Source: Candidatus Omnitrophota bacterium (GTDB lineage: Bacteria; Omnitrophota; Gorgyraeia; Gorgyraeales; Gorgyraeaceae). From it: a stretch of 64,000 bases of DNA. Positions within the stretch are counted from its first letter, which is position 1; every line of letters begins with the position of its first letter. A program made the translations under genes and the position numbers. The stretch covers positions 973 through 64,972 of the forward strand of contig JAPLMD010000026.1 in the NCBI GenBank assembly GCA_026387235.1, given 5' to 3'. A model generated the notes under the pieces. It saw nothing but the letters and a program-made list of their open reading frames with translations. It did no database searches and had not been told where the DNA came from. Of the stretch, positions 14,442 to 54,056 are shown one piece after another.

Positions 14442-14448
14442 TTGAGTT

Positions 14449-19237: not shown

Positions 19238-19350
19238 ATAAAATGAAATGGGCTTAACCATTTCTGATTAAGCCCATTATATACTAAAATTATAAAATCC
19301 GCTATATTCACTTTTTACTCCCTTTCCAGCCTCTCTGTGCTGATTTAAAG
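19238..19350 (-). promoter_or_regulatory. PyrR-dependent transcription attenuator: PyrR binding loop plus intrinsic terminator in the pyr leader
   Basis: Leader RNA (minus strand) contains UUUAAAUCAGCACAGAGAGGCUGGAAAGG (19321-19350). This is a near-match to the Bacillus PyrR binding-loop consensus UUUAA.UCCAGAGAGGCU.GCAAGG. Downstream lies the hairpin GGGCUUAAUCAGAAAUGGUUAAGCCC (19250-19275), followed by AUUUCAUUUUAUCU and then the RBS/ATG of pyrR. Confidence 0.75.
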
Positions 19351-19365
19351 GTACTTACTAGTGTT

Positions 19366-19397
19366 AAATTATACCACCTATTTTTAGAATGTCAAGG
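19366..19397 (-). promoter_or_regulatory. Sigma70-type promoter of the pyr operon
   Basis: Minus strand reads TTGACA-(16 nt)-TGgTATAAT. The -35 is the reverse complement of 19390-19395 and the extended -10 is the reverse complement of 19368-19376. It lies about 15 nt upstream of the PyrR binding loop. The -35 overlaps the stop codon of the upstream radical SAM gene. Confidence 0.6.
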
Positions 19398-20843
19398 TTT
19401 TCCTAAAGAGATAAAAAACTTGTTTTTTATTATCACTGCAAATCCTTCAAATAACATCTTTATCTCGGGCAAGCAGGGATTTTTCATTAGGTGCATGATC
19501 CTGTGCATAAAGAATCTAGGATTGAAATAGACTTTCCTATATGCCTCTTTTATTGATTTCTCCAGAATAGGTAAATCCAATTGGTCTTTTAATATCTTTC
19601 CTTTCTTATTAAAATATTCGTCGTAATCGTATGAAAGTAATGTCTTATTTCTTTTCGCCTCATCGAATAACTGGCTGCCGGGCAGAGGGGTGAATATATT
19701 AAACGTCGTGTAGGTCGGGTTTAATTTTAGAGCAAAATTAATAGTTTTTTTAATCTCATCGACGGTTTCGCCCGGCATCCCTATCATGAATGATGCCTTG
19801 GCCGCAATTCCTATTTTCTTTGTGGAGTTAATTGCTTCCTCTGCCTGTTCTAAGGTCGTATATTTTTTTGCCTGCGTGTGCCACTTTTGTGTCCCGAAGT
19901 CTACTCCATATTTTATATTGCGGCATCCTGCTTTCCTCATAGCCAGCAACATCTCTTTGTCTACCGTATCCACCCTCGCATAGCAATTCCATGTAATCTT
20001 AATATCCTCGTGCAGCAATTTTTCGCAAAATTCCATTATCCTTTCTTTTGGCGCCGTAAGCACGTCGTCATAAAAACGGAAGTCGTGTATTCCAAAGTCG
20101 CGTATGCATGATTTTATTTCTTCAATAACGTTTGCGATTGAGCGGAATTTTACTCTATTTTTGAAACGACTGCCGGCTCTGCCGCAATACGTGCACTGGT
20201 ACGGACAACCTCTTGAAGAAAGGATGCCGGTTGACGGCAGTTGATAATAGTTACTTGGAATGGGGATATACCTACCCACATCTACTAAATGCCGCGCCGG
20301 AAAAGGCAAACTATCCAAATCTTCGATGGGTTCATGCAGGGGGTTTTGTATCACGGCGCCGGCCTCGCGCCAGACAAGGCCCCTGATATCAGGAACATCT
20401 ATTCCTATCACAAGGTCAGTAAACGACCTCTCTCCCTCTCCGTAAATTAAATAATCAAAGTTTTTGAACATCTCCAGGGTTTCTACCGGCAGGGCCGATG
20501 CGTGGGCTCCTCCGACAATTATCTTGGCCTTACTGTATTGCCGGATCAATCCTGCTATCCGATTTGCAGTTATAATGGAGTTAGTGTAGGCAGTCATACC
20601 GATAAAGTCAAAATTAGTATGCTGCAATGCATCTACTAAACGCTGTTCTGCGTCATTATGCAAGGCCATATCAATAAAAGAAACGCGCATCCCTTGCTTT
20701 TCTAAAAAAGAGGCGATATATAACAATCCCAGCTCTAATTCGTGACCACCGTAGTCTTTTCTAAAACTCCCTCCAAAATCTATGGATAAGCGCGCGGGAG
20801 GGCGGACAAGTAATATATTCTTAGTCATAGTCTCTGGATCCAA
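19392..20843 (-). CDS. B12-binding-domain radical SAM protein (class B radical SAM family)
   Basis: 483 aa. N-terminal Rossmann-like cobalamin-binding-type domain. CxxxCxxC motif SSRGCPYQCTYCGRAGSR. Confidence 0.8.
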   Translation of the reverse strand: MDPETMTKNILLVRPPARLSIDFGGSFRKDYGGHELELGLLYIASFLEKQGMRVSFIDMALHNDAEQRLVDALQHTNFDFIGMTAYTNSIITANRIAGLIRQYSKAKIIVGGAHASALPVETLEMFKNFDYLIYGEGERSFTDLVIGIDVPDIRGLVWREAGAVIQNPLHEPIEDLDSLPFPARHLVDVGRYIPIPSNYYQLPSTGILSSRGCPYQCTYCGRAGSRFKNRVKFRSIANVIEEIKSCIRDFGIHDFRFYDDVLTAPKERIMEFCEKLLHEDIKITWNCYARVDTVDKEMLLAMRKAGCRNIKYGVDFGTQKWHTQAKKYTTLEQAEEAINSTKKIGIAAKASFMIGMPGETVDEIKKTINFALKLNPTYTTFNIFTPLPGSQLFDEAKRNKTLLSYDYDEYFNKKGKILKDQLDLPILEKSIKEAYRKVYFNPRFFMHRIMHLMKNPCLPEIKMLFEGFAVIIKNKFFISLGKP

Positions 20844-23073
20844 TATCCTTTAATACGGCATTTGCTATGTTTTCAGCCAACAATTGATTGCCCTTCCTCG
20901 TGCAGTGACCAAAATCACTCCCAAAGTGATCAGTGAAATATTCGTCATAATTACCCTTCTCTAAGGCTGCTTTAAACACAGCTTCATTATCTACGAAGAT
21001 AATACCTTCTTTATCTTCAAAAATATTCTTTAGCGGCTCAAGCTTACGGCAAGGATACTGCACTACCACCAGTCTTATTTTTTTCTGCTCTAGGATTTCT
21101 CTAAGCTTTTGATAGTTATGAATTGTGTTCGCATAAGGCGATAACTTATCTGCCGTTTCCTCGTATCGTTTCTCACTCGACCCGGACTCTAATCTTTCTT
21201 GTGGTTGCGCATTGACTCTGTAATAGTCTCCCAATCCAAGATAGGTGCTGTAATTTCGCAGGCTTTTCTCAAGAGCCCCCTGTAACAATTCTTCCGCATC
21301 ATGCAATTTTCCCTGTTCTATATAAAGCCGGGCCAATTTAGCACATATCTCGTGATTCCCTGGGTTTATTTCTAAACCTTTTGTCCAGACCTGCTGGGCT
21401 TCTTGAAATCTTGTCGCTTCCTCATACAAGCTTCCTAATCTATAGTATGCACATGACTGCCTTGGGTTTATTGATATAGCCTTTACAAACATCTCTTCTG
21501 CTTCCCGGGATTTCCCTTTCGCTTCATAGCAACTACCGAGTCCAAGGCATAGCTCGTAATGTCTTGGATTCATTTTGAGCGCCTTTCGAAACATTTCTAC
21601 TGCTTCCTGGAATGCTGCTCCCCATCTATAATACAACGCAAATTGCTTATATATTTCATAGTGCCCCGGGTTTTGCTTAAGCGCTTTCCTAAGGATTCTT
21701 CTTGCCTCTAACCATCTTCCCATATTGATATAAAACTCACCCAGTGAAAAATACGCTTCATGACTCTTTGGGTTAATTGCAATAGCTCTTTTCAATATAT
21801 TTTCTGCGTCCTTGCTCCTTCCCGTAATTCTATAATGGCGCGCCAATTCATGATACGTATTAATCTTCTGAGGGTATAGTACGATAGCCCGCTGTAACAG
21901 CTCTTCTGCTTCTTTATACCTTCCTGCATCATGATAACCCGATCCTATTGCAACGCATGCTTCATCACTCTCCGGTTTTACAGCGATGAGCTTGTCGTAC
22001 ATCTCTTTTGCTTCCCGGGATTCTCCTCTTTTTACATAATAGAGCCCCAAGGTACAAATTGCTTTGTAATTTTCCGGATTAAGCTCAATAGCCCTCTGAA
22101 GTATATCCTCTGCTTTTTTGTACCTTCCTACTTTCATATAGTACTGACCACATAAAACATAAGCTGCATCGTTTGCGGGAGATATCTCTATGGTCTTTTG
22201 GATCAGCTCTTCTATATCCTGGAGGCGCCCCTCATTGAGATAATATCCACCCAATTCGTAATACGCATCAGTGTTTTGAGGGTTTATTGCAACAGCCTTT
22301 TGGAATAGTTCTTCTGCTTCTTTAAATCTCGCTGTCTCTGCATAGCACTTTCCTAATTCGAAATAGGCCGTATCATCTCCGGCGTCAGCCATGATAGCTT
22401 TTTTAAACATTTCTTCTGCTTCCAGGAATCTTGCTGAATCCAGATAATAACTGCCTAATTCAAGATAGGCTTTGTTATCGCCAGGGTTTATTGCAATGGC
22501 CTTTTGCAGCTTCTCCTCTTCTTTCTTAAACCTTACCGCCATAGAATGCGTTGTTAAAAAGAGGCCTTTTTCTCGCAGTTCTCCAAGTTTATTGGCGCTA
22601 TGCAGCCATAGAAGGTTCACAAGTTTATAGACTCTATATCCCTTCAAAAAAGATAATATTCGAGGAAAAGGCATACTCTCATAAGGAAGAATATCTGAGT
22701 CATTTATCCCCATCATCGTAATTACCATATCAGGATGGTATTTATTCAACTGATCGGGTAATCGTCTTAAAATATCTCTTGTGGTGATTCCGCTGACTCC
22801 TCCATTGATAACAACGAACTTAACCCCAATATTATTCTTATTCAGTATCTGCTGAAGCTGAGAAGGATAGGAGCCCTTTTTTGTGTGCGCTGTCGTAGAC
22901 TCACCTAAACAAAGAATACGATATGCCTTTCCTTCGCGAATAACCTTTTCATTTCTGTATTGCTGCAAAGATATGAGTGCCCAGCCCCCCAGTCGCAATC
23001 CTAGCTCAAGGATAATCACACATACAACTAACCCAATAAGTATTAAAATTACTTTTTCTCTAAGTCTCAGCAT
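20821..23073 (-). CDS. Membrane-anchored SGNH/GDSL-type hydrolase split by a ~450-aa TPR-repeat array
   Basis: 750 aa. N-terminal TM helix. SGNH block I CLGESTT, blocks II/III GGVSGITT / MMGINDSD. About 12 TPR repeats follow. The catalytic block V DFGHCT sits at the extreme C-terminus. Confidence 0.65.
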   Translation of the reverse strand: MLRLREKVILILIGLVVCVIILELGLRLGGWALISLQQYRNEKVIREGKAYRILCLGESTTAHTKKGSYPSQLQQILNKNNIGVKFVVINGGVSGITTRDILRRLPDQLNKYHPDMVITMMGINDSDILPYESMPFPRILSFLKGYRVYKLVNLLWLHSANKLGELREKGLFLTTHSMAVRFKKEEEKLQKAIAINPGDNKAYLELGSYYLDSARFLEAEEMFKKAIMADAGDDTAYFELGKCYAETARFKEAEELFQKAVAINPQNTDAYYELGGYYLNEGRLQDIEELIQKTIEISPANDAAYVLCGQYYMKVGRYKKAEDILQRAIELNPENYKAICTLGLYYVKRGESREAKEMYDKLIAVKPESDEACVAIGSGYHDAGRYKEAEELLQRAIVLYPQKINTYHELARHYRITGRSKDAENILKRAIAINPKSHEAYFSLGEFYINMGRWLEARRILRKALKQNPGHYEIYKQFALYYRWGAAFQEAVEMFRKALKMNPRHYELCLGLGSCYEAKGKSREAEEMFVKAISINPRQSCAYYRLGSLYEEATRFQEAQQVWTKGLEINPGNHEICAKLARLYIEQGKLHDAEELLQGALEKSLRNYSTYLGLGDYYRVNAQPQERLESGSSEKRYEETADKLSPYANTIHNYQKLREILEQKKIRLVVVQYPCRKLEPLKNIFEDKEGIIFVDNEAVFKAALEKGNYDEYFTDHFGSDFGHCTRKGNQLLAENIANAVLKDIGSRDYD

Positions 23074-23156
23074 AAACGACTTGCGGCAGTTAGATGTAAG
23101 GTGGAATTCTAAAATTACGATTATTCACGCTAGACCACATTTCCCTGGAGAGACAC

Positions 23157-24272
23157 TCACTCATGCGGCCAAATTTCATCCCAGTGTTGGCTTAGGTACT
23201 CGGCAATTGCTTCATTCCCCTGAGGAGTTAAATGTATTTGATTAAACAGGTTAACAAGATTCTGGCCGATGCGCTTATTTAAATCTATATATGGTACGCG
23301 CTCTTCTAACGCAACTTCTTCTAGAATTTTTCCGGCGTCGCTCATTAATTGCGGCAGCCTCTCCGCAGGCACCTTCACTAGCCTGTAAGCAATCCGCCTT
23401 TTCTCCTCGCTAGAATTTCTAGAATGCACCAGGGTAAGCGGGTTTATAAGCAAAACCTGCACGCCATTTTTTTTGGCCACGGTAACGATATTCCTGATAT
23501 TCCTTTTATAGACTAATTTTCCGTAATCTGTATCGCCCCCTTCGTTTGGCCTTAAGGTTTTCTCAACGACAGAGGCCATTTCTAGTTCTTCGGGAAAAAA
23601 TTCACGCAGATGGCGCCGCAAGGGTTTCATTGCTAACCAGAGATACGAATGGTTAGCCAGTGTTGCGAGTGCATTATGAGTCTCGAATTGAGAATATATT
23701 CTTTGCCATGATTGTCCATAAGAGGCCTTTCTGTTCAGATATGGCCAGGCCTTAATATCATTCCACGAATGATAAACAATAATCGCATCGGGATTGTAAT
23801 CTAATATCCGAGTGGACAAGTTTATGAGAGAATGGAACGTGGTGTATCCTGACACGCCGGCATTAACTATCTCAATATCACGGTCGGGGTATTTCGCTTG
23901 TAACTTCTTCTCAAGGATTGCACAAAAGCCAATATTATCATTCCCCGATCTGTTGAATACAGACGAACCACCCAATACAAAAACCCTGAAAGGGCGCGCG
24001 TCATCCGGATCGAATTCTTTCCCGCGGAAACCCAAAGAGTTTATATGAAGCTTTATCTTGCCGCAATTGATTTCTACGTTTGGCCGGAGGGTGTACTCTA
24101 GGAAGGGATGCCTTTCATACAAAAGCAGGTCTGGGCTGGTCCAGGCAAGAATATTCTTATGGCTTAAAAAAAAGAAGGCCCTCAATGCCAGCTCACACAA
24201 CAACAAGGTCAGAAATAATGCTACGCAAAACTTGATACATATCTTCCTGTTCAGCATATACTTAATATCCAT
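23157..24272 (-). CDS. SGNH/GDSL-like hydrolase (probable glycan O-acyl esterase/transferase), N-terminal TM anchor
   Basis: 371 aa. FVLGGSSV (block I), NAGVSGYTT (II), YHSWNDI (III), IHLTPQGNEAIAEY (V-like). Confidence 0.55.
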   Translation of the reverse strand: MDIKYMLNRKICIKFCVALFLTLLLCELALRAFFFLSHKNILAWTSPDLLLYERHPFLEYTLRPNVEINCGKIKLHINSLGFRGKEFDPDDARPFRVFVLGGSSVFNRSGNDNIGFCAILEKKLQAKYPDRDIEIVNAGVSGYTTFHSLINLSTRILDYNPDAIIVYHSWNDIKAWPYLNRKASYGQSWQRIYSQFETHNALATLANHSYLWLAMKPLRRHLREFFPEELEMASVVEKTLRPNEGGDTDYGKLVYKRNIRNIVTVAKKNGVQVLLINPLTLVHSRNSSEEKRRIAYRLVKVPAERLPQLMSDAGKILEEVALEERVPYIDLNKRIGQNLVNLFNQIHLTPQGNEAIAEYLSQHWDEIWPHE

Positions 24273-24315
24273 AGAAACCAGTATTGATAATTATACTACA
24301 AAAGGTTAAAACACA

Positions 24316-25233
24316 TCAATCTTTAAACGCAAAAACTTTTCTCAGCCCTTCTTCTATGTCAGCGGGATGATAGCCGATATCTCGCGCGGCCTCTTCGAAA
24401 TTGAAATTTGCATCCATTGTTACGCCCAGGATAGTATCCCTGTTCAAAATAGGATTTTTTACAAATAGAGCTATTATAGCTGTGATAAAGTTACAAAGCC
24501 ATAGCGGGATCCCGACCAGCGGCTTATTGATCCCGAAAGTACGACATATGAGCCTGGTATATTCCCACATGCTCATATCAATACCACCGCTGAAATTGTA
24601 TGTCTTTCCGTAGGTTACAGGTTTGTCAATGATCATCTCCAAACCATCAACAATATCTTCCACCCATACAGGGCGCTTTCTGGCTTTGCCCATGCCTATG
24701 ACGGGCGCAATAAAGGGAAATCGGCGAAGATAATTTGCGTACAAATTGAACTCCTGGCCACCTCCCGCGCCATATAAGAGTGTCGGCCGAATAATAGTGA
24801 ACCTTGTTTTCCCGGGCCTCTTCATTAAGGCTTCCGATCTAAGCTTAGATTCGCCATAGGTAGTCCTTTTGATATATGCTGCGGCTGCTGCGGAAATATA
24901 AACAAAATGCTCCACCCCAGCCTCGACGGCTGCATTGACGAGATTTTCCGTCCCTTGATAATTTACTTTGTGAAAAAGTTCCTTATTGCCGGAAACAAGC
25001 ACGGCTGCCAGATGGAAAACCGTCTTTACTCCTTCTAAACAAGGCCGCAATGTCCCCGGCGCCGTGATATCTCCTTTCACCATCTCGCAGTTTACCCCAT
25101 GCAATTTAGAAAGCAACGGATCATCATCGATGACCATTGCCCGAACGCTGTATCCGGATTCGCACAGCCTTCGTACCAATCTGTTACCGATAAAGCCGGT
25201 AGCGCCAGTGACTAAAATTATTTTTTCACTCAT
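24316..25233 (-). CDS. NAD-dependent sugar epimerase/dehydratase (extended SDR)
   Basis: 305 aa. VTGATGFIGNRLVRRL Rossmann motif. YxxxK-type region. Confidence 0.7.
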   Translation of the reverse strand: MSEKIILVTGATGFIGNRLVRRLCESGYSVRAMVIDDDPLLSKLHGVNCEMVKGDITAPGTLRPCLEGVKTVFHLAAVLVSGNKELFHKVNYQGTENLVNAAVEAGVEHFVYISAAAAAYIKRTTYGESKLRSEALMKRPGKTRFTIIRPTLLYGAGGGQEFNLYANYLRRFPFIAPVIGMGKARKRPVWVEDIVDGLEMIIDKPVTYGKTYNFSGGIDMSMWEYTRLICRTFGINKPLVGIPLWLCNFITAIIALFVKNPILNRDTILGVTMDANFNFEEAARDIGYHPADIEEGLRKVFAFKD

Positions 25234-25249
25234 CGTGATATTAAAGTTT

Positions 25250-26866
25250 TTATTCCCTCGGGCTGAAACGGTATATATTAATGCCCCTTACTTCCTTAGC
25301 AAGTGTAAGTTTATAATGGGTATTTAACTTGTCGATAAACACCCGTTTGCCATAGGCAATACCTGCCCACCGACTTATGAGCACCCAAATCTGCCGATGT
25401 GATTTTATAATATCTTCACGTTGCATAACTTTTTTATCAAAATCGCTCACAATATAGTCTAAGTTATGCATCATGTTCAAACCAGAACCGGGATTCCGGT
25501 ACTCGTCTTTTCCTGTGTCGCGTTCGCTACCAAGAGTTATAATAAAATGATCTTTGTACAGGAACGATTCCTGCCAGCGGTCGGCTTCAAATTTACCAAA
25601 AATGAGTATATCCTTTAAAGCCGCCTGGTCAGCGTCGCCTAAATAATACATAAACGAAACTACTTCTTTTGTTGTAGCTATAATGAAAATATCATCGACT
25701 TTTAACTCATGCCCCTTGACGAAATGCACGGCCTTTTCCCAATCGACATTGATTTTGGCGCTGTACATCGTCCTTAAAGGGACGATGTTTAACAATAGGA
25801 TAGCGACAAGAATGACCCCAGAAATCAATTGGCGCCTATAGTAAATCCCTCTGGCAACGATCAGATAGAATGCGGGTAAGAAAAATAAGAAATTCTTGAT
25901 AAGATACACAGGGGAAAAAAGATAAGAAAATACTAAACTCAAGGCAATAGGCAGGGCTAACCATATAACCACAAATGCTTGACGACTATTAGGTTCCTGA
26001 CTCATAATGATAAAGAGGCCCCGTACGAAAAAAATCCCAAACATCAGCATTAATGCGCCAGCAATTACCGGCGGGAAAGATGTATTTTCTAAAGAACTAA
26101 GGCCGTAGGCCGGTCCCCCGTAAGTAAATGTGCTGAATGTGTCTATTAAACTCTGCATAGCAGGCGGCCGTACCCACCATAGTATTGCCTTAAAATTATT
26201 TCTCCCCGCAAACAATATCCATACCCATAATCCTAAAAAAAGTACTAAGGGTAATTGAAAGGAGAGCCATTGCTTTAATTGCTCGATCTTGATCGAGCGA
26301 CGCGCGTAGATGACATAAAAAAATTGCACGAGGACAGCAGAGATACCGAATGGATGCGTGCAGACGGCCAAGATATTGAGCAATAAGTTGGCGCCCAGCA
26401 TACATGGCTTCTTCTTTTCAAAAAAATCAATAAAGAAAATAAAGGAAAGAAGAACCAAAATAGTAAGCAGGCCGTAGTGTTTGACCTGCTGAGAATGATA
26501 AATGTCAAAACATGAAATTGATAAAAGAAATGATGCGATCAGCGCTGAGCCGGTATTAAACAACCTTTTACCCAATTTATAGGTCAAAAAAATGGCCAAG
26601 ATCCCAAGCATGACTGACAATAGCCGAGTGGCAAAAATCCCCATCCCAAAAGCCGCTATCCAAACCTTCAATAAAATAATATACGGTATCTTATAATTAG
26701 CGACTGAATGAAGCATAAAATCAAACCCTTTGAGCGCATGCGCAAAGAAGCCTATTTCATCATACCAGAGCGGTTTTGCAGTAAGCCCATATAATCGCAG
26801 TATCGCGCCCAGGAGCATGACCGAAAAAAGGATAACAGGAACCCTGATTTTCAATAATTTAGCCAT
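25250..26866 (-). CDS. GT-C fold membrane glycosyltransferase, ArnT/PMT (GT39/GT83)-like
   Basis: 538 aa. Polytopic. N-terminal region LYGLTAKPLWYDEIGFFAHAL resembles the ArnT/PMT loop-1 Asp/Glu motif. Confidence 0.6.
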   Translation of the reverse strand: MAKLLKIRVPVILFSVMLLGAILRLYGLTAKPLWYDEIGFFAHALKGFDFMLHSVANYKIPYIILLKVWIAAFGMGIFATRLLSVMLGILAIFLTYKLGKRLFNTGSALIASFLLSISCFDIYHSQQVKHYGLLTILVLLSFIFFIDFFEKKKPCMLGANLLLNILAVCTHPFGISAVLVQFFYVIYARRSIKIEQLKQWLSFQLPLVLFLGLWVWILFAGRNNFKAILWWVRPPAMQSLIDTFSTFTYGGPAYGLSSLENTSFPPVIAGALMLMFGIFFVRGLFIIMSQEPNSRQAFVVIWLALPIALSLVFSYLFSPVYLIKNFLFFLPAFYLIVARGIYYRRQLISGVILVAILLLNIVPLRTMYSAKINVDWEKAVHFVKGHELKVDDIFIIATTKEVVSFMYYLGDADQAALKDILIFGKFEADRWQESFLYKDHFIITLGSERDTGKDEYRNPGSGLNMMHNLDYIVSDFDKKVMQREDIIKSHRQIWVLISRWAGIAYGKRVFIDKLNTHYKLTLAKEVRGINIYRFSPRE

Positions 26867-27942
26867 AGCATTCTTGGTACAAGTGAAAGTAGCGCTTTCA
26901 AATTAAAAAATGTGGCGATTTGCAAGCTACACTCATAGGTACAACAGCATCTGGTGTCTTTGATTTCTTTTCTGAGCGACTCAGCATCCCGAGAAAACCA
27001 TAGCTTGCGAAAATCATAGCCGTAGGCCCTTATGCTGCCAAAGCCTCGCCCCATTATTTCACAAGGGTAAACGTTTAATGAACTATCGATTATGCACAAC
27101 AATCTTCCTGCGTAGCAGGGAAATAGATACCGGTTTTGATTTGTGATTTGCGCAATCATTTCTGAGATCTTGGATTTGTAGGCGGAGTAAAATCTATAAT
27201 ATAGATTCGTCTGTTTATTTTTTTTAGCCAATAAAAAAGAGAGGACTCTTCTATATAATTTAAGATAATTCACTGCATCTACTTCTTTAATTTTTGGGTC
27301 TCTGACGTTGCCTCTTGCGAAGCTTAGGCTAATCATATCGGGGTTAAGTTTTTCTTCTATGTAATCCAGCGTTTCAGGTAAATCTTCTTGGTTAAGAGCG
27401 GAATAGGTAATGATTATTCCAACTTTGAAATAGGGATTTGTCTTTTTTAATTTCACCAGCCCATGGTAGGTATCAACAGCTTTTAAGAACGCCCCTCGCG
27501 CGCCTCTTATCGCATCATGTTTTTCTTCCAGGCCGTCGAGCGATATTTTTACGGCGAGATCGACGTTCCTGATATTTCTTAATATGTTCTCGGTAGTCCT
27601 CAATATCCGTTCTGTAAAAAATCCATTTGTGGGGATACTTACGTTTGAGACAGAGTTGTTCTTATTGAAAATTTTTATTATCTCCGGGATGTCGTCCCTC
27701 AAAAAAGGCTCTCCTCCGGTCAGCGTCAAGAAACTAAAGCGCCCTAATGACTTTGAAAACCTGTCTATTTCTTCCAGAGTAGCTTCATTAGTTTCTTTGT
27801 TGAGATTGGCCCAATAAAAACAATGCGCGCATGCTAAATTACACTTATCGGTTATAAAAAATATAACTTGTTCGGGCATACGCCATGCGCATATAGGAAA
27901 TAAAATTTTACCAGCCCATCTAATTTTTTCGCGAAATCTCAT
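26851..27942 (-). CDS. Radical SAM protein with C-terminal SPASM/twitch-like Cys cluster
   Basis: 363 aa. ITDKCNLACAHCFY (CxxxCxxC). C-terminal ...YPCEIMGRG...RCCCTYECSLQ. Confidence 0.7.
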   Translation of the reverse strand: MRFREKIRWAGKILFPICAWRMPEQVIFFITDKCNLACAHCFYWANLNKETNEATLEEIDRFSKSLGRFSFLTLTGGEPFLRDDIPEIIKIFNKNNSVSNVSIPTNGFFTERILRTTENILRNIRNVDLAVKISLDGLEEKHDAIRGARGAFLKAVDTYHGLVKLKKTNPYFKVGIIITYSALNQEDLPETLDYIEEKLNPDMISLSFARGNVRDPKIKEVDAVNYLKLYRRVLSFLLAKKNKQTNLYYRFYSAYKSKISEMIAQITNQNRYLFPCYAGRLLCIIDSSLNVYPCEIMGRGFGSIRAYGYDFRKLWFSRDAESLRKEIKDTRCCCTYECSLQIATFFNLKALLSLVPRMLWLNY

Positions 27943-27951
27943 TGTGAATTA

Positions 27952-29043
27952 TCAATATTTTTTCTGAAAGATGAAAAAATCGATCCCCCCGTGAAGCAGC
28001 CCGAAAAAGGCGAATAACATGTCTAGATAAAAAATGCCTATCCATGCGGAACAAAACGGCCAACCTTTAATCTTCGACAGTGACAACAGGTATTTTAAAT
28101 TTATTAATATGAATACAAGCATGAGTGATAAAAATAAGGCTAGATAATGCATCTTAAAATTCAAAAAAGTATAAATACCGAAGCTAAAAATAACAAACGA
28201 CAGGACAAAACTTATAACAAGAGATGGATTGGCCTTTTGCCCCGAACTTACGGGAATAAATGGAGCCCGCCCGGGGTTCCTTGGGCGGAATTTTGTAAAT
28301 CTGATTCTTAAGAAGAATTTAACCATATTGAAACTCACGATATAGGCGCGCTTTAATAGGGATTTTAAGGAATATCTTTTCAGGTGCATTGCGGTCAAAT
28401 TCCTGTTTAGCACTACCAAATTCCCTGACTCAAAAAGCCTATATCCCAAATCGTTATCTTCAACTGTCGCTCCCGGAATTTTAGCGTCAAATCCACCGAC
28501 CTCAAAAAAAGCCTGCCTTCTTATCGCAAAACAATAGGTTGCTATTATATTTACGCAGTCACTTTCATCCCATCGGTTTTTATAATTATTAAAATAATCC
28601 TTGTACTGGGTAATGATATTCTTGGGCATGCTCTCTTGGAAATACCTGCCCTGGACCGCTTGCGCGGCAGGATGATCCTGGAGCATCTTTAGTATCTCTG
28701 ACAACGCATTATCTGCCACTATTACATCTGAGTCCAGAAAGAATAGTATGTCTCCGGAGGCCTGCTCAGCACCGCGATTTCTGGCAAAAGCAGCCCCTCT
28801 ATGCTTACCTAGCTTAATCAACTGACAGGGAAACCTCTCTGCAATCTCGGCTGTCCCGTCTTGCGAACAGTCATCGATCACAATCGCTTCATAATTATCA
28901 TTGTCTAGTTTTAGGATCGACTCAAGACACGTTGCAATAGTATCCTTCTGGTTATAGGTAATAACTATTACTGAAATTTTATGTTTTTGGCTCTGCATAT
29001 AGGTCTTGTTTTCATACTGCCTTGCGATCTCTGCGTGTTGCAT
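27952..29043 (-). CDS. Family 2 glycosyltransferase with C-terminal membrane domain
   Basis: 363 aa. SVIVITYN...VIDDCSQDGT (GT-A DxD region). FFLDSDV. C-terminal TM helices. Confidence 0.75.
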   Translation of the reverse strand: MQHAEIARQYENKTYMQSQKHKISVIVITYNQKDTIATCLESILKLDNDNYEAIVIDDCSQDGTAEIAERFPCQLIKLGKHRGAAFARNRGAEQASGDILFFLDSDVIVADNALSEILKMLQDHPAAQAVQGRYFQESMPKNIITQYKDYFNNYKNRWDESDCVNIIATYCFAIRRQAFFEVGGFDAKIPGATVEDNDLGYRLFESGNLVVLNRNLTAMHLKRYSLKSLLKRAYIVSFNMVKFFLRIRFTKFRPRNPGRAPFIPVSSGQKANPSLVISFVLSFVIFSFGIYTFLNFKMHYLALFLSLMLVFILINLKYLLSLSKIKGWPFCSAWIGIFYLDMLFAFFGLLHGGIDFFIFQKKY

Positions 29044-31003
29044 CGTTCCGTGTTTTGTACACCGTAAAATAGTAGGCTAAAAGTAATGATATTATGCTTA
29101 TCGCAAGGCCGCGATAAAATTCCACAGGAACATATGTCAATTGAATCATGTAATCCCCAGGGTCATCTAGGACTACCGCCAACCGACCACCGTCACCGCG
29201 TTTAGGCAGCTTTCCGACATTCGTTCTCCAGCTCTGATGATAATTCTGATTAATAATGAGCGTATCGGCACGTTGTAGATGCACACTGACCCGGATCTTA
29301 TTTGGGCTGAAATATTGAAGCTGCGCCTGGTTCTCTTCATTCTGGAAAAATACCTCTCCCCGATAAGCAGGATTAGCTTCTAATTTATCGAGCTCGGAAG
29401 GCAGAAATCGCGAATCTCTCTCTCTAACCATATATTTAGGCGTAACGTTTGTCTTAATCGCCAGATTGCCGAAGAGCCAATCAATGAGGCCGATATTACT
29501 CTGCGCATAGTAATACTGGTCAATTTGGTAGGGTTCCGGAAACCCGATGTAATCTTTAATCTTGACATGAAAAAACTCTTTCTGAAACGAAAACTCAGAC
29601 CTATCCTTGAGATGTATCCGGTTTTCTAAAAAACGCTGGTTCAGCCAGAACATATTGTTCAGGCTGAATATTGCAACCGGAATCAAAAGCCAAAGAAACT
29701 TCCTCCTTTCCCGGAGATCCAATACAGAGAAAAAGCGCCCCGAAATGACAGAAATTAGAAAAAAAATCTGGAATGTGAAATATTCATCCATCCGCCAAAT
29801 GCTGTGGACATACGGGTGAAGATGCCATATCCACTTAAATATATCAACCGGGCTATGCGGCCCAAAGGAGATAATAATAGAAATGATCGAAAGAATTATA
29901 TAACGCCAGATCTTTTTCCAATAAAAAAAGCAGCCAAGTGCGGCCAGTATGACGGGTATATAGCCAAAATACATCTGTGTATAATCATCCTGGTCTGGGG
30001 TAACGGTAAAGGAACCAGTTTTGAATGACCGGTTATACGGTTTTTTTGAATTAATATCCCTTGAATAACCGTATTCGAATGGAAAATGACAAGATTTGAT
30101 AAATCGAAAAGAATCGGTCCTAAATAGCCAGCCATGCAACTTCTTCGGATTGACGTCTCTTCCAGTTGCCACAATTGTTTTCGCTATCTTAGAATAGTCG
30201 TTTTCGTAGGGAAAATGAATAAATGGGATATCTTTGCGCGCAAGTAACTGATGCATAGGCAGGATTTTAACCATAGAAATAAGCAGCGTAATCAGCATGA
30301 TAAGCGCAAACACTACCGGAAACCTGGTATTAACTTTAATCCTGCGGGATTTTTCACGGTAGACAGCGTGAAGGCAGGCAAAGAGGAATAAGAAAATGAC
30401 GATGGGTATAAGAATGCTGCCGGTAGATACGGCTATGATACTCATCACCACAGAAGTAAAAAATATAAACTTCTTATCTCGTATAGATTTAATAAAAAAC
30501 ACGATCAGCAGAGGCAGAAAATAAAAGTATAGCTTTTCATAGTTCGACTGCATGTATTGGCAGGGACCCCAGCTGCAGAAAAGAAAAGCTAGCGTGGAAA
30601 AAAGGGAGCCCGCCAGATTATAGCGAAGCTGGTAGCGGGTTAAATAGAATAAGCTCAAGGCCCCGCATAAAACGATTAAAAAGATGGTAATCTTAGTCCC
30701 TTCTATGGCTCCAAACGCCAGGACGATCAGCATTAAGGGGCTTAAGGATATGTCATAGGGAAAACCTATAAAGGGATAGCCTCCTTCAAAATGAGGGATC
30801 CTTAAAGGAAACTGATGATATTTGATAATGGATATTCTAAAAAAGTCGATATAAGGATATATCCCGCACCAATCAACTCGGGGAATGCCATGACTTATAT
30901 CTCTAAAAAGCGGCAAATAAAACAAAATCGCCGATATTGTGATGAGCGCAATGGCAACAGAATCTTTAAAATGGCTCCGTATAGTATTAATCAAAGTTTT
31001 CAT
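29012..31003 (-). CDS. Large polytopic membrane protein, putative GT-C glycosyltransferase/polymerase (YfhO-like)
   Basis: 663 aa. More than 10 predicted TM segments with a large C-terminal extracytoplasmic domain. No confident family match from sequence alone. Confidence 0.35.
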   Translation of the reverse strand: MKTLINTIRSHFKDSVAIALITISAILFYLPLFRDISHGIPRVDWCGIYPYIDFFRISIIKYHQFPLRIPHFEGGYPFIGFPYDISLSPLMLIVLAFGAIEGTKITIFLIVLCGALSLFYLTRYQLRYNLAGSLFSTLAFLFCSWGPCQYMQSNYEKLYFYFLPLLIVFFIKSIRDKKFIFFTSVVMSIIAVSTGSILIPIVIFLFLFACLHAVYREKSRRIKVNTRFPVVFALIMLITLLISMVKILPMHQLLARKDIPFIHFPYENDYSKIAKTIVATGRDVNPKKLHGWLFRTDSFRFIKSCHFPFEYGYSRDINSKKPYNRSFKTGSFTVTPDQDDYTQMYFGYIPVILAALGCFFYWKKIWRYIILSIISIIISFGPHSPVDIFKWIWHLHPYVHSIWRMDEYFTFQIFFLISVISGRFFSVLDLRERRKFLWLLIPVAIFSLNNMFWLNQRFLENRIHLKDRSEFSFQKEFFHVKIKDYIGFPEPYQIDQYYYAQSNIGLIDWLFGNLAIKTNVTPKYMVRERDSRFLPSELDKLEANPAYRGEVFFQNEENQAQLQYFSPNKIRVSVHLQRADTLIINQNYHQSWRTNVGKLPKRGDGGRLAVVLDDPGDYMIQLTYVPVEFYRGLAISIISLLLAYYFTVYKTRNDATRRDRKAV

Positions 31004-31012
31004 GTTCCCCTA

Positions 31013-32401: not shown

Positions 32402-32421
32402 ATTAAGATAAAGTTGATTGA

Positions 32422-34532: not shown

Positions 34533-34543
34533 AGTCTTTTGGT

Positions 34544-35659: not shown

Positions 35660-35675
35660 TTATCCCTGCCTAAAA

Positions 35676-39400: not shown

Positions 39401-39423
39401 TTTAGCCAACACCCATTTTCTAA

Positions 39424-49478: not shown

Positions 49479-50717
49479 CTAATGAGCCTGTTTGCACCGT
49501 GTGCTTGTGCATTCCCGGGTTAAAATCCCGGCTATATACCTCATATCCGCTTCCTTGAGTCTCGGATAATTCGGGATCTGCAAGCTTACCCTGACCGCTT
49601 CAGAGGCAGATACGCAGTCACTCTCCTTGCCGTCGATCGCCGAACAATCGCGCATAATATGCTTACCCGTATCTATACCTTTACGCAATAGCTTTTTAGC
49701 CAGGCCTGATGCATCCCGGGTTAAGACCACAAAAAAATAATACGTCGGCCGAAGAGCCTCTCTGTCTTTAAGCGTATCTATCTTGCCTTCGATAAGGCTC
49801 ATCAGCAAGCCGGCATTGCGCCTGCGGCTTTCATTTTCCGTATCGATATTGCTTAGCTGCCTGATCCCCATCAATGCCTGCATGTTCGTATATTTTACCC
49901 CGGATGCCCCGGATTTGGCTACAGGTTTCACAGTCTTGTTGTAAATATTTATCAGATCCTTATCAAAAAAAGACAAGAATAAGAGCCAGGGGAAAACGAT
50001 CATTAAGAAAAATGGAGGTGAAGTCAACAAAAATAAGCCGTAAGAAATAAGGGCCTTCTTCAAGATTGCGGCAGGAACCGGATAATCAAAATGCGCTGAT
50101 CTTTCTTCGATCTTGGCATACAACACCGGGTCATTGGTTGTGATCATGCCTCCTCCGAACGTATTAAAAGGCTTGGTTATCCCAAAGCTGAAATAGGCAG
50201 CTGCGCCGAATGAACCGACCCGCCGTCCATTATATTCTGCTCCGATCGCATGGGCACAGTCTTCAATAACAACCAGGCTGTGCTTCTTTGCTATTTCCGT
50301 TATTTTTGCCAAATTGCAAGGCCGGCCGAAAATATGGGTAGCCAGGATCGCTTTGGTCCTGGAGTTGATTTTCCCTTCAATGAAGTTAGCATCGATATTG
50401 TGGGTATCTCTCTCAATATCTATAAAAATTGGCGCCAAGCCTAAGCTCTGAATCACTTCCGAAACACTTTCATCTGTGTAGGCAGGGAGCATAACTTCAT
50501 CATTCTTATTCAGCGATAACGCATCGAGTATCAGAAACAAACCCAATCTACCCGATGCTACCGCAATAGCATACTTGGTTCCAATATATTTACTAAACTG
50601 TTCTTCAAATTGTTTGATATAAGGCCCTTCCTTGATTCTCCGTTGAAAAATTAAGATTAGAATGTCTTTCAATTCCCCTCTATAATGAGCAATATTTCTT
50701 CGCGCTATTACTCTCAT
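49479..50717 (-). CDS. DegT/DnrJ/EryC1/StrS-family PLP-dependent sugar aminotransferase, with an unusual ~60-aa hydrophobic insertion
   Basis: 412 aa. ...AAAYFSFGITKPFNTFGGGMITTND (active-site Lys region) and ...KYTNMQALMGIRQL... The TM-like insert LFLLTSPPFFLMIVFPWLLFLSFF lies between them. Confidence 0.65.
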   Translation of the reverse strand: MRVIARRNIAHYRGELKDILILIFQRRIKEGPYIKQFEEQFSKYIGTKYAIAVASGRLGLFLILDALSLNKNDEVMLPAYTDESVSEVIQSLGLAPIFIDIERDTHNIDANFIEGKINSRTKAILATHIFGRPCNLAKITEIAKKHSLVVIEDCAHAIGAEYNGRRVGSFGAAAYFSFGITKPFNTFGGGMITTNDPVLYAKIEERSAHFDYPVPAAILKKALISYGLFLLTSPPFFLMIVFPWLLFLSFFDKDLINIYNKTVKPVAKSGASGVKYTNMQALMGIRQLSNIDTENESRRRNAGLLMSLIEGKIDTLKDREALRPTYYFFVVLTRDASGLAKKLLRKGIDTGKHIMRDCSAIDGKESDCVSASEAVRVSLQIPNYPRLKEADMRYIAGILTRECTSTRCKQAH

Positions 50718-50726
50718 ACAAATCCT

Positions 50727-52214
50727 TTATAAACTGACTATCGCTAAAAAACCCTGCCAGCACCTATATACGTCAGAGAAGTTTCTGATCTGACGCAGCT
50801 GGCTTAAGATGTAACTCGGCCTAAAATAAAAAGATCTGTGCGCCCGCGAAGAAGACTTGCGAATCTGATTTTCTCCCAACCCCTTTGATACAAAAGGCAA
50901 GCGCATATATTTTGGCAGATTTAATTGGCAATAATGCTGGTAGTTTCTATGCAAAAGCAGGCCTTCGGCGCTAATTTTGTGAAAAAGTTCTGTGCCGGGA
51001 AAAGGTATAAAAATATGAAAGTTAACGATATCTGCGGGGAGCGTCTTGGCGAAATCAATTGTTTTTTGGATAGTCTTCTCTGTTTCTCCCGGGAGGCCAA
51101 ACATAAATGATACCTTAACGTCCATGCCGCATGCTTTTGCGCATAGCACGGCGTCTTTGCATTCCTCCGGTGTTATATATTTCTTAACTCTTTCCAATAT
51201 GGCAGCCTCTGCGCTTTCGATACCGAATCCAATCTGCCAACAGCCAGAGCGTTTCATTATCTTCAAAAGATCAAAAGAAAGGTTTTTTACATGAACACGG
51301 CACGTCCAAGGGATTTTCATATTTCTCTTCGATATCTCTTCACAAATATCTATAACCCGCTTTGGGTCCGCATTGAAGGTATCATCGTTAAACTTTACTT
51401 CTTTTACACCGAACCGCCTCATCAACATTTCTATTTCATCTACTACATTTTTTGGAGAACGCGCACGAAATAACTGGCCAAAAACTTTTCGGTCACAAAA
51501 TGTGCATTGATAAGGACAGCCTCTGGAGGTCATAATCTGAGCATAGGGCATTTTTCTGACATTCCCTGGCATTGGACGGTATATGGATAGGGGTGGAAAT
51601 AAATGAAATGCGGGAAAAGGCAAAGAATCTAAATTATCTATGTAAGCCCTCCTGCCGGTAGAAATTAACTCGCCATTTTTTCTATACATTAATCCACTAA
51701 TGCCGGAAAAATCTTTTGATGCGTTTCTAACCCGTTGCACAATTTCTAGAAATGAATACTCCCCTTCTCCTAAAACTACCACATCAAAGGGACCGTTACG
51801 CATTGTCTCTTCAGGTAAAGCCGTAACATGCGGTCCACCTATCACAATCAAGGAATGCGGCAGGACAGCCCTGGCATTCCGGGCGGCTTTTATGGCGCTA
51901 TCAATAGAAATGGTGGTAGCCGTAAAACCGATGATCTGCGGCTTTTCTATCGCCAGATCCTTGCACAAATCATCGTGGGTCAGGCTTAACGGAGGGCAAT
52001 CAACTATCTTTACAACAAAACCCTCTCTTTCCAGAAGCGCAGCGATATACCCAATCCCTAGCGGAGGGAGAAGGCTAGCAATTCTCTTCATCTTCCCCGC
52101 TGCTTCCTGTCTCGTAAGAGGAGGGTTAACGAGAAATATCTTCATATTTGTTGAAAACACTCTTTCATTTAAGTTGTACCAGTTTTTAAGAGAGCGCAGC
52201 CGCATTTTTGTCAA
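50727..52214 (-). CDS. B12-binding-domain radical SAM protein
   Basis: 495 aa. TSRGCPYQCTFCDRKVFG motif. Confidence 0.75.
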   Translation of the reverse strand: MTKMRLRSLKNWYNLNERVFSTNMKIFLVNPPLTRQEAAGKMKRIASLLPPLGIGYIAALLEREGFVVKIVDCPPLSLTHDDLCKDLAIEKPQIIGFTATTISIDSAIKAARNARAVLPHSLIVIGGPHVTALPEETMRNGPFDVVVLGEGEYSFLEIVQRVRNASKDFSGISGLMYRKNGELISTGRRAYIDNLDSLPFPAFHLFPPLSIYRPMPGNVRKMPYAQIMTSRGCPYQCTFCDRKVFGQLFRARSPKNVVDEIEMLMRRFGVKEVKFNDDTFNADPKRVIDICEEISKRNMKIPWTCRVHVKNLSFDLLKIMKRSGCWQIGFGIESAEAAILERVKKYITPEECKDAVLCAKACGMDVKVSFMFGLPGETEKTIQKTIDFAKTLPADIVNFHIFIPFPGTELFHKISAEGLLLHRNYQHYCQLNLPKYMRLPFVSKGLGENQIRKSSSRAHRSFYFRPSYILSQLRQIRNFSDVYRCWQGFLAIVSL

Positions 52215-53356
52215 AGAAAATCATAGGAGAAATAAGCTATGCCGTCCGGATTCAGAGACTCTATTATCTTCTCCTGCTCGGATAGGATCTGGGGGTCATT
52301 TTCCATTAAAAAATTACCTATACCTATGTAAACCCTGCCCTTTCCTCTCTGAGCAAGGGCTGAGCGCGTTATCTCTTTTGCAAGCTGATTATTCTTTGTG
52401 TAATTCATTAGCACCACATAATCAACTGTGCCGTTTTCCAGCCACCCGGGCCAATCCTGAAACGACGCGGAAAAAGCAGTATCAGGCGAAGGAAGCACTG
52501 CGCAGGACATAAGCATCCCCGGGTATTTATTTTTTATATCCTTCGCCAGCTTATCCACGAGATTCGTGACCTGGCTTCTTTTCCAGTCGTCCCATATGAG
52601 AGAATTTTCATTATTGTCCGGCATGGATAAAGAGTCCAGGCCTGTTTTTTCCTTAAATCTTTTTACATTTTCCTCTCCGTATCCGTATGTCAGGCCATAT
52701 TTATTGAAGCTTGAACGCGGAAGAAAAGGCACGGGATACGGATAACGCACGTAATCAAGATGCAGCCCGGATAAATCAGGGTATCTGGTTATAATTTCAT
52801 CTATTACGGACGCCATATATTCGCTTACCCGCGGGTCTCCGGGCTCAAGAAAAAGCTGATCGTCCCTGAGATAATATTTATCGGATTCATTTACGTCCTC
52901 TGTCCTCATTGAGACCCTCTGATGCTGGTCCCGCGTCAATACGGAATTCCCGAATTTTTTTATTATATCGGCGTTTTTATTTTTCCCCGCGCAAAGGACA
53001 TTTACCCAGGCAAATACTTTTACGCCGCACCTCTTCGCCTCTTTCAGCAGGCAATCTATCGCATCAGCTCCGGATGCTTTAAGCATAGCCTCATATTTTG
53101 ACCTGCCGCCGAGTTTAGTATCGTAATAAGCTTCGCCGCTTCTATAAAACTGAAGGTATACTTCGTTCAGGCCTTTTTTCCTGCAAAATTTAATAAGCTC
53201 AAATGCGGACTTTTCGGAATATAGGACTTCTTTGTCTGAAAAACAAGTTACCCACACGCCTTTCGCAGGGATATTTTTATCTTTTCCATGCGCGGATAAA
53301 GGCATTATTAAAAAAATAATTATAAAAAATAGAAGAAATCTTTTTATGCCTTCCAT
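52211..53356 (-). CDS. Secreted glycoside-hydrolase-like family 10 (GHL10/DUF187-type) protein
   Basis: 381 aa. N-terminal signal peptide. GVWVTCF..., ...KVFAWVNV... and LHLDYVRYPY blocks typical of GHL10 TIM-barrel proteins. Confidence 0.5.
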   Translation of the reverse strand: MEGIKRFLLFFIIIFLIMPLSAHGKDKNIPAKGVWVTCFSDKEVLYSEKSAFELIKFCRKKGLNEVYLQFYRSGEAYYDTKLGGRSKYEAMLKASGADAIDCLLKEAKRCGVKVFAWVNVLCAGKNKNADIIKKFGNSVLTRDQHQRVSMRTEDVNESDKYYLRDDQLFLEPGDPRVSEYMASVIDEIITRYPDLSGLHLDYVRYPYPVPFLPRSSFNKYGLTYGYGEENVKRFKEKTGLDSLSMPDNNENSLIWDDWKRSQVTNLVDKLAKDIKNKYPGMLMSCAVLPSPDTAFSASFQDWPGWLENGTVDYVVLMNYTKNNQLAKEITRSALAQRGKGRVYIGIGNFLMENDPQILSEQEKIIESLNPDGIAYFSYDFL

Positions 53357-54029: not shown

Positions 54030-54056
54030 GCGCTATATTATAACACATTTTTGAAT

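Follow-up and report, generated by a model that had tools for sequence, protein, structure and literature searches.

A candidate cell-envelope glycoconjugate locus with nine radical SAM genes in a Candidatus Omnitrophota genome

Described glycosylation systems and the Omnitrophota locus

Extracytoplasmic glycosylation by a GT2 glycosyltransferase, a flippase and a GT-C glycosyltransferase is an established scheme, with precedents that include the Citrobacter pentofuranose systems (PMC11127046). We describe a 34-kb gene island from a Candidatus Omnitrophota bacterium (assembly GCA_026387235.1, contig JAPLMD010000026.1) that, judging by its gene content, appears to work most like these three-component systems. 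It occupies positions 19392-53356 of the 64,000-nucleotide stretch analysed here, termed the window, and its open reading frame (ORF) listing gives 23 close-packed genes on the minus strand, nine of them encoding radical S-adenosylmethionine (radical SAM) enzymes. The known part of the island is its backbone of GT2, GT-C and sugar-nucleotide genes; the new part is the dense, conserved radical SAM complement. In our reading, to which we give a probability of roughly 0.6, it is a variable cell-envelope glycoconjugate locus combining a lipid-carrier and GT-C logic with radical SAM tailoring, and its product is probably a sugar coat on the cell surface that contains sugars of unusual chemistry. 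The original prediction for this DNA, made from the sequence alone, proposed a glycoconjugate pathway tailored by radical SAM enzymes. A glycan-assembly locus with an extraordinary radical SAM load is indeed present, but it is not self-contained, and it is a genomic lead, not a solved pathway.

Like the GtrA/GtrB/GtrC, ArnC/ArnEF/ArnT and CsbB/GtcA/YfhO systems, the island has GT2 proteins that are candidate polyprenyl-phosphate glycosyl synthases beside GT-C proteins of PMT_2/ArnT-like and YfhO-like types, and it too has sugar-nucleotide tailoring enzymes and a putative furanose supply enzyme within the locus. It differs in having no flippase gene, which leaves its membership of the class incomplete, and in having five GT-C genes to two GT2 genes. 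None of the described three-component systems has interleaved radical SAM genes, of which the island has nine.

Mycobacterial assembly of arabinan and lipoarabinomannan (by Emb, AftA-D and PimE, with decaprenyl-phosphate sugars) likewise involves furanose chemistry and several paralogous GT-C proteins encoded together, some with large extracytoplasmic C-terminal domains. It differs in phylum and in envelope, sequence identity is 6-13%, and it is a characterised pathway without radical SAM enzymes. We know of no described lipid-linked galactofuranose donor.

Radical SAM enzymes that act on carbohydrates are few, and those known come almost all from antibiotic pathways or act on lipid head groups. 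Cds and HpnJ act on lipid-linked or lipid-bound hexoses (PMC13459092). In the hopanoid side-chain pathway (HpnH, HpnI, HpnK and HpnJ, with HpnA, HpnB and HpnL) and with archaeal calditol synthase, a radical SAM or B12-binding radical SAM enzyme acts on a lipid-bound sugar, and the hopanoid enzymes are accompanied by a GT2 enzyme, a short-chain dehydrogenase/reductase (SDR) and flippase-like proteins. The Hpn pathway uses no GT-C protein, however, and the island's window is without squalene-hopene cyclase, HpnG and HpnK. Class B radical SAM enzymes also C-methylate carbohydrates, and the gentamicin and fosfomycin enzymes are precedents for action on such substrates (PMC12931638). In antibiotic biosynthesis, GenK and GenD1 (gentamicin), Fom3, AprD4 and MoeK5 modify unactivated carbons in substrates that are carbohydrates or resemble them, but there they are single enzymes of actinobacterial secondary-metabolite clusters, whereas the island has six paralogues in what is probably an envelope glycan locus.

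An uncharacterised locus of Candidatus Schekmanbacteria (L009; GCA_016219965.1) likewise has DegT, an SDR, a 240-amino-acid (aa) GT2 enzyme, a PMT GT-C protein, an SGNH protein and two radical SAM/SPASM proteins, and its YfhO-like GT-C protein is 30% identical to g29012 of the island. Wzx, GT4 and SAM methyltransferases of the ordinary kind set it apart, as does the lack of any radical SAM protein with a B12 domain. An anammox planctomycete S-layer glycan locus was dropped as a candidate: the Kuenenia S-layer paper does not mention radical SAM, and the host here belongs to Omnitrophota. Full-text literature searches gave no description of a locus with the island's composition, in line with the novelty first claimed for it. 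In a 2026 survey of Omnitrophota genomes, radical SAM appears solely as a Pfam module within giant proteins, while glycosyltransferases are mentioned just as hypervariable cargo.

Genes of the island

The nine radical SAM proteins comprise six with a B12-binding domain, one that is methylthiotransferase-like and two small ones (Table 1). All nine had been named as such beforehand, and in each we find the Pfam domains and a single CxxxCxxC motif. None contains a hydrophobic or membrane segment, so they are taken to be cytoplasmic. If 2% of genes are assumed to encode radical SAM proteins as background, the binomial probability of nine among 23 is ~3e-10. The six proteins assigned to the B12-binding type (g19392, g31013, g32422, g35676, g40620 and g50727) each score above gathering thresholds for both domains, at 60.8-80.7 bits for PF02310 (cutoff 32.1) and 74.9-90.8 bits for PF04055. 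Mutual identity among these paralogues is ~30%, and the tandem pair g31013 and g32422 shares 73%. In g50727 the motif reads CPYQCTFC, at residue 233, and QCMT (9CCB) and AprD4 are its closest relatives of known structure; for the six as a group, solved relatives at superfamily level are these two together with TokK, CysS, TsrM and OxsB.

Family membership was tested with curated NCBIfam equivalog cutoffs, and none of the nine reaches one. The best scores, with cutoffs in parentheses, are 241 bits for HpnJ (577.6), 212 for Sden_1168 (575), 204 for BchE (481) and 160 for PhpK (600); AprD4 family scores for the B12-binding proteins are 89-114 bits (500). The HpnJ score is the top NCBIfam match of g50727, and HpnJ is also the best named partial match of g19392. 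With scores so far under the cutoffs, membership of the HpnJ (hopanoid), BchE (bacteriochlorophyll) and PhpK (phosphonate) families is rejected, and with it the possibility, raised with the original prediction, that known hopanoid or bacteriochlorophyll enzymes are involved. The named partial matches are chemically diverse: HpnJ carries out a ring contraction, BchE is a cyclase, AprD4 a dehydratase, and PhpK and Sden_1168 are P-methyltransferases. C-methylation is thus just one option, and the extensive C-methylation once expected of class B enzymes is not implied.

Neither small radical SAM protein matches Pfam SPASM, but a profile that combines 31 sequences of the g42069 family can be aligned over its whole length with both SkfB and CteB, and four C-terminal cysteines (C268, C286, C315 and C318) are invariant, while g26851 has a CNLACAHC motif and a C-terminal cysteine cluster. 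The full-length alignment and the four cysteines lead us to call the two twitch/SPASM-like, a softer form of the SPASM label they had been given. Their solved relatives, at superfamily level, are SkfB, CteB, viperins, BlsE, PqqE and anSME; no paper was found in the literature for PDB 9DFN, the solved structure closest to g42069 in a single-sequence comparison. The methylthiotransferase-like protein g39424 has a radical SAM core and a UPF0004 domain with three cysteines (C13, C49 and C81), whose spacing we take to fit the auxiliary-cluster motif of methylthiotransferases, but it has no TRAM domain and scores 175 bits with TIGR00089, the MiaB/RimO subfamily (cutoff 251), so membership is unsupported, although the layout is like that of the family.

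The expected count of five GT-C proteins stands. Only g25250 passes the PMT_2 threshold; g37067, g43072 and g47595 fall slightly under it. These three are paralogous, g47595 being 32% identical to both others over ~640 aa and g43072 37% identical to g37067 over 783 aa. For g29012 no match was found in Pfam or NCBIfam. Its 30% identical homologue P0068 carries PF09586 (YfhO), and the top 13 Foldseek matches of its AlphaFold2 model (predicted template modelling score 0.80) are all GT-C proteins. The closest folds to g37067-type proteins include Pmt4 and Pmt2, and structural neighbours of the GT-C proteins include AftA, AftB, AftD and EmbA at 6-13% sequence identity. Predicted structures confirm the GT-C fold in this way for two proteins that Pfam missed or barely detected. 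After the first transmembrane segment (TM1), the g37067 family has LDEELY, in which E58 is nearly invariant, and a nearly invariant, Asp-containing DYQRS/EYEGG element; g25250 has a YDE motif after TM1. Such acidic residues of the first loop may be catalytic. The g37067 and g29012 proteins are 100% identical to proteins of a metagenome-assembled genome named Candidatus Omnitrophica bacterium at NCBI, on a 65.5-kb contig. Two gene starts differ from the public annotation: NTX47_02385 shortens g29012 to 477 aa, although 20-odd homologues support ~650 aa, and the annotated start of g37067 lies 22 codons downstream of that of the longest ORF.

Both GT2 enzymes are candidate polyprenyl-phosphate glycosyl synthases. 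For g33810, near-full-length matches at 34-67 bits, far below cutoffs, are to PgfS (the top match), ArnC, PpgS and a dolichyl-phosphate hexose transferase, and AglJ is a further sub-threshold match of this kind; in g27952, residues 275-350 contain three hydrophobic segments. The protein originally called a UDP-galactopyranose mutase, g34544, does belong to the GLF family, but it scores 226 bits with TIGR00031 (equivalog cutoff 303.75), and specificity for UDP-galactopyranose is assigned at family level only. Partial matches of g49479 to PseC, LegC and ArnB are all under cutoffs, as is the match of g24316 to HpnA (108 bits; cutoff 368).

An SGNH domain is present in all three proteins first described as SGNH esterases or acyltransferases, each with a single N-terminal membrane anchor, but g20821 and g45454 (53% identical) are not plain esterases. 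In g20821, a long TPR array separates blocks I-III of the SGNH domain (residues 55-127) from block V, which reads DFGH and lies at residue 720. This architecture, in which the TPR array splits the SGNH domain, is unusual, and block I reads GES instead of GDS. At the 3' end of g45454 (45454-45560), an out-of-frame deletion of ~37 codons has removed the catalytic DxxH of block V, as comparison with the paralogue g20821 and with intact homologues in three related loci (L001, L005 and L010) shows; the conserved tail NRLLAENIA... can be read in another frame. Either the gene is decaying or the assembly is in error here. The prediction of a secreted GHL10-like protein holds for g52211, where PF02638 is accompanied by an N-terminal hydrophobic, signal-like segment.

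Table 1. Genes of the island in order of transcription, with the upstream housekeeping genes and the downstream control region
Feature	Coordinates	Strand	Description	Basis
glmS	54057-55886	minus	housekeeping, upstream of island	SIS and GATase domains
rsmI	53344-54108	minus	housekeeping, upstream of island	TIGR00096 276 bits, above cutoff
g52211	52211-53356	minus	secreted GHL10-family, TIM-barrel glycosidase-like	PF02638 108 bits
g50727	50727-52214	minus	B12-binding radical SAM, 495 aa; island's first radical SAM	PF02310 80.7, PF04055 82.1 bits
g49479	49479-50717	minus	DegT/DnrJ/EryC1-type pyridoxal-phosphate sugar aminotransferase	PF01041 248 bits
g47595	47595-49475	minus	GT-C, 626 aa	PMT_2 25.3 bits (threshold 26.1); ~11 hydrophobic segments
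g45454	45454-47598	minus	membrane-anchored SGNH-TPR	Lipase_GDSL_2 and TPR families
g43072	43072-45426	minus	GT-C, 784 aa, C-terminal helical-repeat domain	PMT_2 25.5 bits
g42069	42069-43142	minus	small twitch/SPASM-like radical SAM	PF04055 87.6 bits; Fer4_12
g40620	40620-42044	minus	B12-binding radical SAM, 474 aa	PF02310 60.8, PF04055 90.8 bits
g39424	39424-40608	minus	methylthiotransferase-like radical SAM	UPF0004 47.7, PF04055 71.5 bits; no TRAM
g37067	37067-39508	minus	GT-C	transmembrane domain of ~450 aa, then periplasmic alpha-solenoid of ~350 aa
g35676	35676-37070	minus	B12-binding radical SAM	PF02310 73, PF04055 79.5 bits
g34544	34544-35659	minus	GLF-family flavin mutase	PF03275 138 bits
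g33810	33810-34532	minus	soluble GT2, 240 aa	PF00535 82.6 bits
g32422	32422-33813	minus	B12-binding radical SAM, tandem with g31013	Pfam; overlaps stop of GT2 gene g33810 (ATGA)
g31013	31013-32401	minus	B12-binding radical SAM, tandem with g32422	Pfam
g29012	29012-31003	minus	divergent YfhO-like GT-C, 663 aa	homology and predicted fold
g27952	27952-29043	minus	GT2, 363 aa	PF00535 121.9 bits; GtrB/ArnC-like architecture
g26851	26851-27942	minus	small twitch/SPASM-like radical SAM	PF04055 59.7 bits; Fer4_12
g25250	25250-26866	minus	GT-C (PMT_2/ArnT-like)	PMT_2 31 bits (threshold 26.1); ~12 hydrophobic segments
g24316	24316-25233	minus	NAD-dependent SDR sugar epimerase/dehydratase family	PF01370, PF01073
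g23157	23157-24272	minus	membrane-anchored SGNH hydrolase/acyltransferase-family	Lipase_GDSL_2 48.3 bits
g20821	20821-23073	minus	membrane-anchored SGNH-TPR	Pfam, motifs
g19392	19392-20843	minus	B12-binding radical SAM; island's last gene	PF02310 73.1, PF04055 74.9 bits
pyr control region	19242-19395	minus	downstream boundary	sigma-70 promoter and PyrR-binding leader

Related loci and interpretation

About a dozen related contigs carry mosaic versions of the island, compared here by searching all fetched loci with the island proteins (tblastn). What had been described as a single island is one such mosaic within a class of loci found across the phylum, and the linkage of radical SAM and GT-C genes is conserved in related and distant Omnitrophota loci. 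The g37067 family is narrow, with 39 proteins in 5.8 billion, and scans for it gave three loci among GTDB species representatives and six in JGI metagenomes. In every independent locus a g42069-type radical SAM gene lies upstream of a g37067-type GT-C gene, down to 43% identity of the GT-C protein; direct adjacency is broken only in the window, L011 and L012, by two extra radical SAM genes in between. The wider distribution was followed through the g42069 family, which numbers 375 proteins at E <=1e-10; its members with a named source are almost all from Omnitrophota/Omnitrophica.

Other arrangements recur as well. Glf adjoins the 240-aa GT2 gene in the window, L001, L004, L006, L011 and L012, and a cassette of Glf, GT2, two B12-binding radical SAM genes and a YfhO-like GT-C gene is found in the window, L001 and L006, the latter two keeping the tandem pair g32422/g31013. 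The order GT2, small radical SAM, GT-C, SDR is shared by the window, L001 and L010. Orthologues of g35676 (53-64% identity) occur in L004-L007 and L012-L015, and the gene stands beside a GT-C gene in most related loci. L011 has a g40620 orthologue (81% identical) at the same position, and L010 a g19392 orthologue (88% identical) after an SGNH-TPR gene.

The variable parts lie between these. L011 and the window share g40620 and g39424; in L001, which is without both, genes for a Hexapep acyltransferase and an FrhB-like protein occur in their place. L010 has a SAM methyltransferase gene at the position of the SGNH gene g23157, L007 and L014 are without Glf, and L004 and L006 lie in a different genomic neighbourhood. 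Such mosaic variation between close relatives suggests diversifying selection on the surface. Public labels on the contigs of L006 and L007 read 'uncultured Planctomycetales' and 'Patescibacteria group'; the gene content is Omnitrophota-like, and the labels may be wrong.

More distant loci keep the theme. L018 has seven to eight radical SAM genes with GT2, SGNH, GLF-like oxidase, polysaccharide deacetylase, PMT_2 and YdjC genes, and L019 has four with DegT, two PMT_2, GT4, GT2 and WbqC genes. In L017 (positions 1881-15100 of ERZ21869602 ctg94818l, a 2.69-Mb contig), four B12-binding radical SAM genes and one of g42069 type occur with no GT-C gene and adjoin genes for two GT9 heptosyltransferases, an LPG_synthase_TM (MprF/HpnL-like) membrane protein and a TPR protein, which hints at a link to the lipopolysaccharide core or to lipid flipping.

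From the gene identities, folds and radical SAM motifs, the division between cytoplasmic and membrane proteins, the radical SAM-GT-C linkage and the mosaic variation, we infer the following substrates, order of steps, chemistry and acceptor. Cytoplasmic enzymes would make unusual nucleotide sugars, the GLF-family mutase supplying a furanose (probably UDP-galactofuranose), DegT and the SDR an amino or deoxy sugar, and GlmS also contributing. Single sugars would be loaded onto polyprenyl phosphate by g33810 and g27952, because the former has sub-threshold resemblance to polyprenyl-phosphate glycosyl synthases and the latter has C-terminal membrane segments of GtrB/ArnC type. While lipid-linked or nucleotide-linked, these sugars would be altered at unactivated carbons by the nine cytoplasmic radical SAM enzymes; candidate chemistries are C-alkylation, ring contraction, epimerisation or oxidation, and deoxygenation, with methylthiolation for g39424. 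A transporter encoded elsewhere would flip the products. The five GT-C proteins would then transfer them to an acceptor (perhaps lipopolysaccharide or lipid, a polysaccharide or a protein) in the periplasm, a location suggested by the GT-C folds and the conserved acidic residues of the first loop, and the anchored SGNH and SGNH-TPR proteins would add or remove acyl groups on that side. Two features suggest that a polymer or a protein is recognised: the solenoids in g37067 and g43072, and the TPR arrays that SGNH proteins carry.

The case for sugars or lipid-linked sugars as radical SAM substrates is indirect. It draws on the cytoplasmic location of the enzymes, on translational coupling (start/stop overlaps join radical SAM genes to glycosyltransferase genes), on conserved adjacency, on the replacement of island genes in relatives by conventional tailoring genes (SAM methyltransferase, Hexapep acyltransferase, FrhB-like) and on the precedents above.

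Several points weigh against this scheme. Among the 23 island genes there is no flippase (GtrA, MATE or ArnEF), and the island has no initiating phosphoglycosyltransferase, polymerase, Wzx/Wzy or ABC exporter; all ORFs in 19392-53356 are assigned and gaps are <=83 nt. Five GT-C genes face two GT2 genes. With no curated family cutoff reached, no reaction can be assigned to the radical SAM proteins, and their nearest solved relatives include a protein methyltransferase (QCMT) for the B12-binding type and the peptide maturases SkfB and CteB for the small type. Cobalamin binding by the former is predicted from Pfam; AprD4 carries a B12-type domain without using B12, and such domains need not bind it. 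No product, expression or glycan data for any member of Omnitrophota were found in our literature searches.

We also considered other explanations. The B12-binding enzymes might serve a glycolipid head-group pathway, turning lipid-bound hexoses into carbocyclic or rearranged head groups in the style of HpnJ or calditol synthase, or they might modify the lipid chain (Mss, Hbs or Grs type). The precedents of Cds and HpnJ (PMC13459092) point that way, as do reported Mss/Hbs lipid radical SAM enzymes in Omnitrophota (10.1101/2023.10.20.563219), the best sub-threshold NCBIfam matches (HpnJ, HpnA, HpnB, HpnH and a lipid B12-binding radical SAM family among them) and L017, which pairs the same radical SAM set with LPG_synthase_TM of MprF/HpnL type and no GT-C. 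We nevertheless think it unlikely. All Hpn scores are less than half of the curated cutoffs, homologues of squalene-hopene cyclase, Mss and Tes were not found in the window, related loci have polysaccharide genes (Wzx, GT4, WbqC and deacetylase), and the presence of five GT-C proteins, two of them with large periplasmic solenoids, alongside periplasmic SGNH-TPR proteins is more in keeping with an acceptor that is a polymer or protein than with a simple head group. The system could instead be protein O-glycosylation of PMT, TMTC or Pgf type, with the radical SAM enzymes modifying the acceptor protein or peptide (methylation, epimerisation or thioether formation) and not the sugars. TMTC protein O-mannosyltransferases consist of a GT-C module with C-terminal helical repeats. 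A GT-C module followed by a C-terminal helical-repeat domain is also the layout of g37067-type proteins, with Pmt4 and Pmt2 among their closest folds; PgfS, the top match of g33810, comes from a protein-glycosylation system, and QCMT, SkfB and CteB modify proteins or peptides. The PDB similarities are generic and at superfamily level (E 1e-12 to 1e-24), however, and with gaps of at most 83 nt the island has no space for a precursor or acceptor gene. The radical SAM proteins are cytoplasmic while GT-C transfer would be periplasmic, and their genes show translational coupling with those for GT2 and GT-C proteins as well as co-variation with sugar-nucleotide genes, all of which makes modification of a protein acceptor distinctly improbable.

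We give hardly any credence to the idea that this is a conventional locus of O-antigen or capsule type whose radical SAM genes are functionally unrelated passengers or belong to known non-glycan pathways (BchE, hopanoid, PhpK). Among named families the B12-binding proteins do score best with BchE, HpnJ and PhpK/Sden_1168, but at 150-241 bits against cutoffs of 481-600, and core genes of photosynthesis, hopanoid and phosphonate metabolism are absent from the window. Passengers would also not be expected to keep their adjacency to GT-C genes in independent loci at low identity, nor to be tied to glycosyltransferase genes by start/stop overlaps.

The envelope glycoconjugate reading has a more far-reaching version, which we put forward tentatively as a possibility. 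Omnitrophota glycans would be built from lipid-linked sugars that batteries of radical SAM enzymes rewrite before GT-C transfer. This would include the first lipid-linked galactofuranose donor, new carbohydrate radical chemistry (C-alkylated, ring-contracted or methylthiolated sugars) and, in the g42069-type twitch radical SAM enzyme with its GT-C protein, a new obligate enzyme pair. Conserved envelope glycan loci with four to nine radical SAM genes each would point to sugar structures new to bacterial surfaces, and would offer enzymologists co-evolving enzyme-substrate cassettes, such as that of Glf, GT2, two B12-binding radical SAM enzymes and a YfhO-like GT-C protein. Omnitrophota are ultrasmall, largely uncultured and thought to depend on other organisms, and surface chemistry is likely to be central to this lifestyle.

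Boundaries, transcription and neighbouring genes

Every ORF named in the original prediction was recovered on the minus strand with the same coordinates, although the gene count is 23 and not about 24. The island is co-directional as described, but this is not specific to it: the series of minus-strand genes is unbroken from 55886 to 19392 and onward to 520. Packing is tight, with 20 of the 22 island junctions at <=27 nt and four being 4-nt start/stop overlaps. Gaps extend from -85 to +83 nt, a wider range than the 0-25 nt with many ATGA couplings first given.

At its downstream end the island stops exactly at the pyr promoter, as claimed. A 12/12 sigma-70 match with extended -10 (19395-19368) overlaps the stop codon of g19392, and a PyrR-binding leader follows (19242-19355; Rfam RF00515, 54.5 bits), which includes a 14-bp hairpin as well as a T-run; pyrR, pyrB, pyrC and the remaining pyr genes lie beyond. 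Upstream, rsmI overlaps the GHL10 gene by 13 nt and is itself overlapped by glmS. The only strong upstream promoter match (11/12, at 55933-55905) precedes glmS. From these overlaps and this sole match, the transcription unit probably starts at glmS, so that glmS and rsmI share the island's promoter, and it may measure ~36.5 kb with these two housekeeping genes included. Counts of internal promoters and terminators in the island are not clearly different from those in shuffled sequence, which neither confirms nor refutes a single transcript.

No transposase, integrase or tRNA gene was found nearby, which agrees with the earlier statement that no mobility gene of the first two kinds flanks the island. 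Its codon usage is distinct from that of the flanks, the correlation of relative synonymous codon usage being 0.75 between island and flanks, 0.97 between halves of the flanks and 0.91 between halves of the island, and GC content at third codon positions is slightly lower (0.44 versus 0.47). The flanks are housekeeping operons with high expression, so we do not regard the difference as proving that the island was acquired horizontally.

Further along the minus strand, an operon for a V/A-type ATPase (subunits I, C, E, A, B and D) lies at 520-11867, with an inserted universal stress protein gene and, at 520-2253, a second gene for an A/B-like catalytic subunit. Diverging from the glmS promoter, the sole large plus-strand gene of the region (55955-58273) codes for a membrane protein of 772 aa that has a spermidine-synthase-like domain. 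Also outside the island, a gene for a Memo-AMMECR1 fusion (58437-59906) adjoins one for a small radical SAM protein (60069-61043), and the pair (58437-61043) has the composition of the AmmeMemoRadiSam system.

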